Assembly (NCBI GenBank): GCA_031283585.1
Contig: JAITBP010000013.1
Span: 1-32,000, forward strand
Reading direction: 5' to 3'
DNA: 32,000 bases
Source: Puniceicoccales bacterium
GTDB lineage: Bacteria; Verrucomicrobiota; Verrucomicrobiia; Opitutales; LL51
Positions 30,622 through 32,000 of this stretch are shown piece by piece. Position numbers and translations under genes: made by a program. How positions within the stretch are numbered: position 1 is the first letter of the stretch; each line of letters begins with the position of its first letter. The notes beneath the pieces are model-generated. The model had not been told where the DNA came from and made no database searches. It was given only the letters and a program-made list of their open reading frames with translations.

Positions 30622-30649
30622 TTGACAATGTGGCCAATCAGAGTAAAAT
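30622..30649 (+). promoter_or_regulatory. Near-consensus sigma70-type promoter TTGACA-N16-TAAAAT
   Basis: TTGACA is at 30622-30627 and TAAAAT at 30644-30649. The -10 element ends 9 nt before ATG 30659, which implies a (nearly) leaderless transcript. Confidence 0.45.
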
Positions 30650-30658
30650 TTACAACCA

Positions 30659-31084
30659 ATGAGCGAAATTGATTCGATGTTAAAGGCCTTGGAAGGTCAT
30701 CGAGATATTATTCATCTAGACAGGGAGCTGGGGATTGTTCAGTTTGCCGTGGATGGTAACATGTTTCAGATTGAAAGCATACCGGAGCTTGGTTGTCTGT
30801 CAATGAGCTCGGTGTTGAGTGGCATAGATATAGAGGATGAGAATTTGACAGCGGTACTGTTTGGCCTCATGACATTGAATTTGTATAACTATCAAACCTT
30901 CGGGCTGGGCCTTGGATTGGATGCCACAAGGATGAATGTGGTAGCATTTAAAAATATCTATGAAAATGATATGAAGTATAGCAATTTGGCCAATATTACC
31001 GAGGATTTTATCAAAAAGTTTCTGGCCCTCAGGAACCTATTTGAGTCAGAATTTCATGACACATTTGTCAAAAAATTTTTATAA
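30659..31084 (+). CDS. Class I type III secretion chaperone-like protein (CesT/SycE-like; the alternative is a YbjN-like fold)
   Basis: 141 aa with 21 D/E versus 11 K/R by my count and no signal peptide. The sequence pattern (LGIVQFAVDGNMFQIESIPELGCLSMSSVL...LTAVLFGLMTLNLYNYQTFGLGLGLDATRMNVVAFKNI...FIKKFLALRNLFE) matches what I know of T3S class I chaperones. Confidence 0.55.
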   Translation: MSEIDSMLKALEGHRDIIHLDRELGIVQFAVDGNMFQIESIPELGCLSMSSVLSGIDIEDENLTAVLFGLMTLNLYNYQTFGLGLGLDATRMNVVAFKNIYENDMKYSNLANITEDFIKKFLALRNLFESEFHDTFVKKFL

Positions 31085-31092
31085 TATTTATC

Positions 31093-32000
31093 ATGGGTAT
31101 AGATAGGATAGGGAGTCATGACAATAGCAATTTGTTGTCAAATATCAAAGATAGCCATTCCATCGGGAAAAATACGCCGGCTGACTCAAAAATAAGTATC
31201 AGTAAAAATAAAAACCCAGCTACCATTTCAGAAAATACTTCCAGTAAGGATTTGATATTCAGTGAATTGAAAAGAAGACTGGCCATCTCGAAAGCAGGCT
31301 ATATCCCTGTTACTGTCAAAGAAAGACAGATTGCCGGTGGGGTAGCCAAAAACGATGGGTTAGGTACGGTTAATGACTGTCCAAAATGGAAAACATCGCT
31401 CAGCAAAGATTTAAATTTTTCCAAAAGCAGCAATTTAACAAGGTTACTAAGCGTACTAGTTGGTTGGGGTGATGCTTTATTTAAAATTATTGCCCATATA
31501 TTGCCGCCAATTAACCTTATATCAAAGCTTATTACCGGTGAAAATGTTCATCTGTCCCAGTCGGTGGTTCCGGGGCTAAAAGAACTGAATTCTTGTGAGG
31601 TGATCAATTCGCAAAAAGAAATCGCTCTTTCCGATGTGCAATCAGAAAAAAGGCAGGAAATTCAGTTTGCTTCCATGGTTTTATCGGCATTAAAAGATGA
31701 TATCAATAAAAACAGGTTTGGTGAAATAGGGAAAGATCGAGCAGTGTTGATAGGAGGTACTGCTACGCTTGATTCATTACCGAAAGAGGTTAGGGAGAAA
31801 ACTGCTCTACTTATGTCCAAACTAGGCGAAGGTGGGTTTGAAATTTGCGACGATGGAGTAATTCGCCAAAAAGATCGTGATGATGGCAACCATGGTCCAT
31901 TTGAAGCCATGTTGGCCTATGATAATGAAACAAAAAATGTGTTTTTAGCTTTTAGAGGAACCTCCGGTGGTGAAAGAATTGAAACCGTATTATCTGATGC
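31093..32000 (+). CDS. Candidate secreted effector, 5' portion only; enters a lipase class 3-like domain at the window edge
   Basis: Absent from the ORF track (no stop in the window). I checked the frame codon by codon and it is open from ATG 31093 to 32000. The N-terminus is Ser/Asn/Lys-rich and is not a signal peptide. The last residues, NVFLAFRGTSGGERIETVLSD, resemble the Lipase_3 domain start (..VAFRGT..). Confidence 0.5.
   Translation, partial: MGIDRIGSHDNSNLLSNIKDSHSIGKNTPADSKISISKNKNPATISENTSSKDLIFSELKRRLAISKAGYIPVTVKERQIAGGVAKNDGLGTVNDCPKWKTSLSKDLNFSKSSNLTRLLSVLVGWGDALFKIIAHILPPINLISKLITGENVHLSQSVVPGLKELNSCEVINSQKEIALSDVQSEKRQEIQFASMVLSALKDDINKNRFGEIGKDRAVLIGGTATLDSLPKEVREKTALLMSKLGEGGFEICDDGVIRQKDRDDGNHGPFEAMLAYDNETKNVFLAFRGTSGGERIETVLSD

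Follow-up and report, generated by a model that had tools for sequence, protein, structure and literature searches.

The end of the 32,000-nt stretch of DNA analysed here (the window; 40% G+C), which derives from a Puniceicoccales bacterium (Verrucomicrobiota), carries a two-gene module, ORF1-ORF2, that raises the question of whether a member of this lineage pairs a lipase with a dedicated chaperone for T3SS-mediated delivery (T3SS: type III secretion system). The two protein products are recorded at NCBI under 'MAG: Puniceicoccales bacterium' (MAG: metagenome-assembled genome) as a 'type III secretion system chaperone' (ORF1; MDR2735890.1) and 'hypothetical protein LBB20_03635' (ORF2; MDR2735891.1). 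The combined evidence suggests, at a probability that we place at about 0.55, that ORF1-ORF2 represents a lineage-specific class I T3SS chaperone-effector operon, the cargo of which would be a phospholipase A1 (PLA1)-like lipase destined for eukaryotic cells, plausibly those of a gut protist. The module comprises the following features in the window:

30621..30649, + strand: putative sigma-70-type promoter, ATTGACA-N16-TAAAAT, with the TTGACA-N16-TAAAAT core at 30622-30649
30659..31084, + strand: ORF1, 141 aa, proposed lipase chaperone; acidic, with a predicted class I T3SS-chaperone-like (CesT/ExsC/SicP-like) fold
31085..31092, + strand: intergenic spacer, 8 nt from the ORF1 stop to the ORF2 start
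31093..31377, + strand: ORF2 residues 1-95, proposed secretion signal and linker; Ser/Asn/Thr/Lys-rich, low-complexity and hypervariable
31384..31533, + strand: ORF2 residues 98-147, candidate chaperone-binding or membrane-targeting segment; KWKTSL(T/S)xD followed by an amphipathic/hydrophobic helix
31879..32000, + strand: ORF2 residues 263-302, start of a class-3/PLA1-like alpha/beta-hydrolase domain, with the strand NVFLAFRGT

The lipase and its acidic partner

ORF2 had been recognized in the first-pass annotation as an uncalled frame beginning 8 nt after the ORF1 stop codon (TAA, 31082-31084), and it is open from the ATG at 31093 to the end of the window (302 codons), with a translation that matches the one quoted at that stage. 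The frame is completed on L001, a 3-kb Logan contig which encodes the exact ORF1 protein and differs from the window by three single nucleotide polymorphisms, all silent, in the 1656 nt of overlap, giving a full-length product of 452 aa. The predicted protein comprises three parts, namely a variable disordered N-terminus, a conserved middle region with an amphipathic helix and a C-terminal lipase domain.

The hydrolase domain runs past the window to residue 452. FRGT is located at residues 287-290 (nt 31951-31962), and NVFLAFRGTSGGERIETVLSD is present at the window edge, where a lipase-like sequence had been reported; the NVFLAFRGT stretch aligns to 'LIVLSFRGS' of the Thermomyces lipase. A GxSxG motif had been expected beyond the window, and the continuation of ORF2 on L001 carries IISGHSLGGGMAQ, the GxSxG nucleophile elbow, with GHSLGG at residues 337-342 and Ser339 positioned 50 residues after FRGT. 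Gly337, Ser339 and the LGG at 340-342 are invariant in 7/7 paralogous lipase units, with H, L, Q or Y occupying position 338. Further downstream, ORF2 contains KND at 392-394 and FINH at 430-433. At the acid position 394, five units have D and the other two E, and a His occurs within two alignment columns of His433 in all seven. Position 394 lies 55 residues after Ser339, a gap identical to the Ser146-to-Asp201 spacing of the Thermomyces lipase. Ser339 is assigned as the nucleophile, with Asp394 and His433 as the probable acid and His of the anticipated triad.

The Pfam Lipase_3 model, a check proposed alongside the original prediction, barely passes its cut-off with ORF2 and does so over residues 330-352 only (PF01764; Bitscore: 22.1; cut-off: 22.0). 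Several other alpha/beta-hydrolase models match weakly around the elbow, and a precomputed match to PF26363 ('Phospholipase-like') is recorded for all four ORF2 homologues. Following the best PDB match, a type VI secretion system (T6SS) lipase that is considered below, PDB sequence searches return Thermomyces and Rhizomucor-type class-3 lipases, which are aligned from 'VFLAFRGT' to the elbow. At the level of sequence, the enzyme class of ORF2, a class-3/PLA1-like serine lipase, is established.

The regions preceding this domain differ markedly in conservation. The first ~95 residues are unalignable across the seven lipase units, while the remainder aligns. This N-terminus opens with a loosely conserved M-x-I-D-x-[IV]-G, and its first 50 residues contain 20% Ser, 14% Asn and 4% Leu and lack a Sec-type hydrophobic core, in keeping with the earlier description of a Ser/Asn-rich, Leu-poor start without a Sec signal. 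The composition fits that of a type III secretion signal, which the N-terminus may constitute. The single hydrophobic/amphipathic stretch described previously spans residues ~115-147, where the Kyte-Doolittle score, averaged over 19 residues, peaks at 1.6 at residue 118. The KWKTSL(T/S)xD/amphipathic segment of residues 98-147, of which it forms part, is kept in all close paralogues and may serve in chaperone binding or membrane targeting.

The ORF1 product is small and strongly acidic, as first described (141 aa; 21 D/E versus 11 K/R; isoelectric point (pI): 4.57), and its N-terminus has neither a hydrophobic segment nor a signal peptide; its homologues have pI values of 4.15-4.31. Its size, acidity and predicted cytosolic location fit class I T3SS chaperones, which are about 120-160 aa in length. 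An AlphaFold2 (AF2) model of ORF1, built on a 20-sequence alignment including genuine CesT-family sequences, has the topology a1-b1-b2-b3-b4-a2-b5-b6-a3 (predicted local distance difference test (pLDDT): 80.2; predicted template modelling (TM) score: 0.74). In a Foldseek search of this model against the PDB, the first ~40 matches are all class I T3SS chaperones, among them ShcA (8e-6) and ExsC (1e-5), with E-values down to 8e-6 and TM values reaching 0.69. The list comprises ShcA, ExsC, VecA, SrcA, SicP, SycN/YscB, SycH, CesT, SigE, SycE, SpcU (3tu3 and 4akx), Spa15 and InvB, and YbjN-type proteins (6vu7) are reached only at an E-value of ~1e-2. A class I T3SS-chaperone fold for ORF1 is therefore supported by the predicted model.

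The sequence evidence for membership of a chaperone family is weak but consistent. Four of the five ORF1 family members match CesT (best e-value: 6.5e-4), all under the curated cut-off, and alignment of the ORF1 family with the true CesT family of the same clade by hhalign extends over 84 columns with an e-value of 5e-4 and a probability of only 31%. A full-length MAFFT alignment of the same two families gives 20-27% identity from end to end.

Conserved pairing and a shared putative promoter

The proposal that ORF1 and ORF2 form a chaperone-substrate gene pair is strengthened by their joint inheritance in related genomes down to ~25% identity, the pairing being kept in L002, L003, L004, L006 and L014. 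The same chromosomal site, between genes for an ABC ATPase and a Kdo transferase, is occupied in three of these loci, with the following arrangements:

L002: lipase, then chaperone
L003: lipase, lipase, chaperone, third lipase
L004: chaperone, then an 884-aa protein consisting of two fused lipase units

In two further species, P0010, which shares 25% identity with ORF1, is encoded directly upstream of a distant lipase homologue in a different genomic context. In L006, a P0010-type chaperone gene is located 22 nt 5' of the gene for a lipase (25% identity) bearing GHSLGG, NPAAIN and KGDIVSD. The spacing between chaperone and lipase genes is 8 nt in the window and L003, and 21 nt in L004. The chaperone is the more conserved partner, with 68-76% identity compared with 42-49% for the lipase. 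Lipase to chaperone ratios of 1:1, 2:1 (the two fused units) and 3:1 are found, which is more readily explained by a chaperone common to several lipases than by an immunity protein matched to each of them, and the retention of the KWKTSLTxD/amphipathic segment in all close paralogues likewise fits a shared chaperone.

A TTGACA-N16-TAAAAT promoter ending 9 nt before the ORF1 ATG had been proposed, and this sequence (30622-30649) matches 11/12 consensus positions. In the window alone its occurrence is within chance, at least one match being present in 21/100 shuffles. Its extended form, ATTGACA-N16-TARAAT, is found at seven independent sites in four genomes, all at the 5' end of module genes, and is absent elsewhere in the window and the 17 fetched loci. 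It precedes each module gene unit in the window (one copy), L004 (one), L003 (three) and L002 (two), with a perfect TTGACA and a 16-nt spacer, at distances of 9-18 nt from the chaperone ATGs and 77-89 nt from the ATGs of stand-alone lipases. This confinement to module gene 5' ends across the 17 loci identifies the motif as a conserved element, and its conservation points to a promoter function. Since the putative promoter ends 9 nt before the ATG, the ORF1 mRNA would be leaderless or nearly so. The 8-nt spacer between ORF1 and ORF2 is without its own copy of the element, suggesting that the genes are probably co-transcribed as a two-gene operon.

Between positions 3526 and 3835 of L003, a remnant encoding a lipase C-terminus (…IEMIKSNVSTGNK) is accompanied by an extra promoter copy. 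As the remnant has its own promoter, whole promoter-gene cassettes appear to be duplicated, and the sequence pattern indicates that the locus is evolving by ongoing tandem duplication of such cassettes. The 884-aa ORF of L004 (10448-13102) consists of two complete lipase units fused in frame, the first of which has Glu in place of Asp in the nearby SD pair and a shifted C-terminal His. The L002 contig ends in a short-period coding repeat (11997-12303; PMMPIMM… / VVWLVMRL…) just downstream of the chaperone gene, which is probably the reason for the assembly break at this point.

About five sequence clusters of the ORF1 family are known, each of them from Puniceicoccales MAGs of the termite-gut type, and when 185,579 species genomes were scanned with the lipase profile, matches came from two Puniceicoccales MAGs only. 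Two of the homologous loci belong to the MAGs Gsp477_bin142 and Gsp477_bin153, Gsp477 being a metagenome from the gut of Glyptotermes, a lower termite (PMC11707648), and P0010 and P0002 sit in different bins (Gsp477_bin153 and bin142) rather than in one MAG. Lipase-profile scans of a JGI metagenome collection, which does not include this lineage, and of IMG/VR found nothing, on which grounds a phage origin of the lipase is unlikely. A role in anti-phage defence was considered and dropped, there being no PADLOC hits.

The module lies between housekeeping genes, as had been stated. Pfam annotation of the window ORFs identifies, on the upstream side and on the minus strand, genes for a divergent ABC ATPase and a solute-binding protein, gatB, tatD and bacA, among others, and the next gene after ORF2, as read on L001, encodes the Kdo transferase. 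Elsewhere in the window, two adjacent minus-strand genes (15965-16996 and 17101-18258) code for paralogues with signal peptides (29% amino acid identity; e-value: 4e-27) for which neither Pfam nor NCBIfam has a family. The 15965-16996 protein contains FVDIDNTII, a D-x-D-x-T motif of the HAD-like kind, which has been lost from that of 17101-18258. A further minus-strand gene (9627-11489) encodes a 620-aa protein that is rich in Lys and Asn and has both a signal peptide and HEFGH, a zinc-metalloprotease-like motif; this protein is without a Pfam or NCBIfam match and may be another secreted, lineage-specific factor.

Secretion context and competing explanations

Whether the clade possesses a T3SS bears directly on the function of the module. 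Secretion genes were sought by Pfam annotation of the 27 large window ORFs and in the precomputed annotations of the fetched loci, covering 10-kb flanks around every chaperone or lipase homologue and 20-kb views of the contigs, the longest of 830 kb, on which the genuine CesT gene is located. This genuine class I chaperone is carried by L006 (ExsC: 7e-7; SrcA: 2e-6; CesT: 9e-4; NCBIfam SicP: 4e-10). It is 146 aa in length and is followed by a 94-101-aa ORF without a family (2572-4115 in L006; ~10001-11560 in L007, L010, L014 and L015), an arrangement which recalls ExsC-ExsE. More than 20 Puniceicoccales MAGs hold the pair, as do ENA/Logan contigs reaching 830 kb in length, of which one is labelled STEW19 (possibly a rumen data set). 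A DUF2062 membrane protein is encoded next in L006, L010, L014, L015 and L017, with none called in L007-L009, and no apparatus genes occur within 10 kb of these loci.

Within the window, a 206-aa acidic protein with a tetratricopeptide repeat (TPR)-like C-terminal half is encoded on the minus strand (20632-21252) at the end of an mraZ-mraW-ftsL-like operon, and an ORF of 206 aa is found at the corresponding place in both L002 and L004. It matches the SycD/LcrH class II chaperone model far below the cut-off (TIGR02552; Bitscore: 26.7; cut-off: 104.8; e-value: 3.7e-6), and its Pfam matches are restricted to weak ones to TPR_9 and TPR_19, such that the SycD/LcrH match could be generic TPR similarity. 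The genuine ExsC/SicP-like chaperone and this acidic TPR protein provide circumstantial support, by sequence likeness, for a T3SS in the clade. A second TPR protein (14062-14658), of 198 aa and with one TPR_14 match, was also considered as a class II chaperone. This candidate was dropped, as it is followed (to 15953, plus strand) not by translocators but by a 427-aa multi-pass membrane protein without a family, which is polysaccharide-flippase-like.

Under the proposed chaperone-effector function, the conserved strong promoter would drive an operon with almost no leader. We infer that, while still in the bacterial cytoplasm, the lipase would be bound at its N-terminal/middle region by ORF1 dimers, which would keep it soluble, inactive and secretion-competent and would hand it to an injectisome that the lineage would have to encode. 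Once exported, the lipase would attack membrane phospholipids within the cells of a eukaryotic host, for which a gut protist is a plausible candidate, and one chaperone would serve one to three lipase paralogues.

Several results weigh against this proposal. No injectisome apparatus genes (sctC/J/N/V/R/S/T/U) are found in the window or the fetched related loci (~150 kb), and the literature searched does not mention a T3SS for Puniceicoccales, for Opitutae or for 'Nucleococcus'. While the earlier suggestion that ORF1 is a class I chaperone is supported by the predicted fold and by weak CesT similarity, the Pfam CesT cut-off is missed (PF05932; Bitscore: 15.1; cut-off: 22; e-value: 0.026) and no NCBIfam model matches. 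A HMMER search of 1.84 billion representative proteins with the ORF1 family profile recovered no wider family, the one real distant relative being P0010; P0009 was rejected as a spurious repeat-protein match. PDB sequence searches (phmmer, hmmsearch) with ORF1 and its family returned nothing meaningful. Furthermore, one of the five AF2 models is confident (pLDDT: 80, 67, 57, 53 and 42), and a run with only four close homologues is unusable (pLDDT: 42), showing that the good model depended on the true CesT sequences in the alignment; the same pLDDT-42 run does predict the secondary structure of the confident model in the N-terminal half. Finally, the best PDB sequence match of ORF2 is the Enterobacter cloacae T6SS lipase Tle (7ubz; e-value: 1.2e-3).

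This last match raises the prospect of an antibacterial role for the lipase, as a Tle6/Slp-type effector of a T6SS, with ORF1 acting as a cytoplasmic activator or adaptor, or as an unconventional immunity protein. Tle, of the proposed Tle6 family, and the Serratia T6SS PLA1 Slp (7ubz, 9cys) are the closest solved relatives of the ORF2 lipase domain. The similarity to Tle reaches past the elbow into the 'N-x-A-x' strand, such that the two proteins share GHSLGG and the strand that follows. Tle is a PLA1 with plant PLA1s and fungal lipases as structural relatives, and a partner in the cytosol is required prior to its export and for it to become active (PMC11470151). The tandem paralogues, the fused double lipase and the gene remnant also resemble polymorphic-toxin loci, and the gut is a dense and competitive habitat. 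The similarity is weak, however, falling to an e-value of 0.038 when the lipase family profile is used, and what precedes the lipase domain is unrelated in the two proteins. Tle6 partners are 'invariably' ankyrin-repeat Tli lipoproteins (PMC11470151), that of Tle being a six-ankyrin-repeat lipoprotein immunity factor, whereas no Tli lipoprotein is encoded adjacent to the module lipases. Their sole conserved partner is the CesT-fold ORF1, which is not an ankyrin protein and has no signal peptide or lipobox. Immunity to a periplasm-acting lipase must be located in the periplasm. Up to three lipases per ORF1 homologue also fit one-to-one immunity poorly. Hcp, VgrG, PAAR and adaptor genes are lacking within 10 kb in the module loci, and PAAR, VgrG, MIX and Rhs domains are found neither in ORF2 nor in the neighbouring genes. 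A T6SS effector is consequently an improbable identity for the lipase.

An explanation that dispenses with the injectisome altogether casts ORF1 as a CesT/YbjN-fold holdase or inhibitor of a self-toxic phospholipase, held until its release by lysis, in vesicles or through another exporter, or until its intracellular use. The lack of apparatus genes in the sampled DNA and of a reported T3SS in the order speaks for it, as do the occurrence of the fold in the non-T3SS protein YbjN (6vu7), lower in the ORF1 match list, and the lineage-specific orphan status of the ORF1 family. We nevertheless regard it as unlikely: T3SS chaperones occupy ranks 1-40 of the fold search, before the YbjN-like proteins, the clade keeps a clear ExsC/SicP/SrcA-type chaperone with its small ORF, an arrangement known from T3SS regulation, and a long, disordered and hypervariable lipase N-terminus is hard to explain for an intracellular enzyme. 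Were the clade to have no injectisome, the chaperone fold might have been recruited as a cytosolic holdase or activator of a Tle6-like PLA1 family exported by another, possibly novel, route. This would be a previously undescribed chaperone-toxin pairing in Verrucomicrobia of the termite gut, and this too we regard as doubtful. Export of the lipase by the flagellar type III apparatus, with ORF1 as the export chaperone, appears very improbable. A parallel exists in the Yersinia phospholipase YplA, which is reportedly exported through the flagellar T3SS and next to which an accessory gene is encoded, but the data obtained here contain no direct support for this route. No flagellar genes were seen in any locus. 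The flagellar export chaperones FliS, FliT and FlgN are all-helical and not CesT-like, unlike ORF1, the fold matches of which are injectisome chaperones.

Relation to known systems and significance

Among characterized systems, SpcU-ExoU of Pseudomonas aeruginosa is, by analogy, the closest functional counterpart of ORF1-ORF2, in that a small acidic chaperone is encoded beside a membrane-damaging phospholipase that would be dangerous to its producer. The two pairs share no sequence similarity. ExoU is a patatin-like phospholipase A2 with a Ser-Asp dyad, whereas ORF2 is class-3/PLA1-like, with GHSLG and a probable Ser-Asp-His triad, and spcU is located downstream of exoU, whereas ORF1 lies upstream of ORF2. 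With class I chaperones in general (CesT/ExsC/SrcA/SicP/ShcA), ORF1 shares its size, acidity, predicted a-b-b-b-(b)-a-b-b-a topology and a gene position beside the presumed substrate, although the sequence similarity lies under the family thresholds (15.1 versus 22 bits). SrcA is, like ORF1, encoded among housekeeping genes away from the apparatus, and the Salmonella SrcA locus holds steD and sseK2.

A lipase domain has also been described in the T3SS effector RipAL of Ralstonia solanacearum, where it is putative and resembles Arabidopsis DAD1 (PMC6928842). Lipase-domain proteins are therefore an established type of T3SS cargo. RipAL, the likeness of which to the candidate effector ORF2 is one of domain description, is a plant-pathogen effector that targets chloroplast lipids, and that paper describes no dedicated adjacent chaperone for it (PMC6928842). 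The novelty claimed for the module in the first-pass annotation was thus overstated: chaperoned phospholipase effectors (SpcU-ExoU) and a lipase-domain T3SS effector (RipAL) are already known, and the T3SS chaperone label of ORF1 is already in NCBI.

What the analysis adds to the annotation is a correction, the downstream 'hypothetical protein' being a lipase. Its practical value is modest: the two genes are a clearly defined pair that can be tested in lipase assays and for secretion in a heterologous host. The combination of a Tle6-like PLA1 domain with a T3SS-type chaperone, instead of an ankyrin immunity protein, would represent a toxin domain moving between secretion systems. The module would gain in interest if the clade proves to direct an injectisome at the protists of the termite gut, or to lack an injectisome altogether. 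Should the lineage have an injectisome, the ORF2 lipases would be the first candidate type III effectors that we have found described for Puniceicoccales or Opitutae. The relatives of the bacterium are gut-associated, with at least one originating from a lower termite that harbours cellulolytic flagellates, and a phospholipase that is present in several copies, diverges fast and has a chaperone of its own would suggest that these uncultured bacteria directly manipulate or invade the cells of eukaryotic hosts, probably protists.

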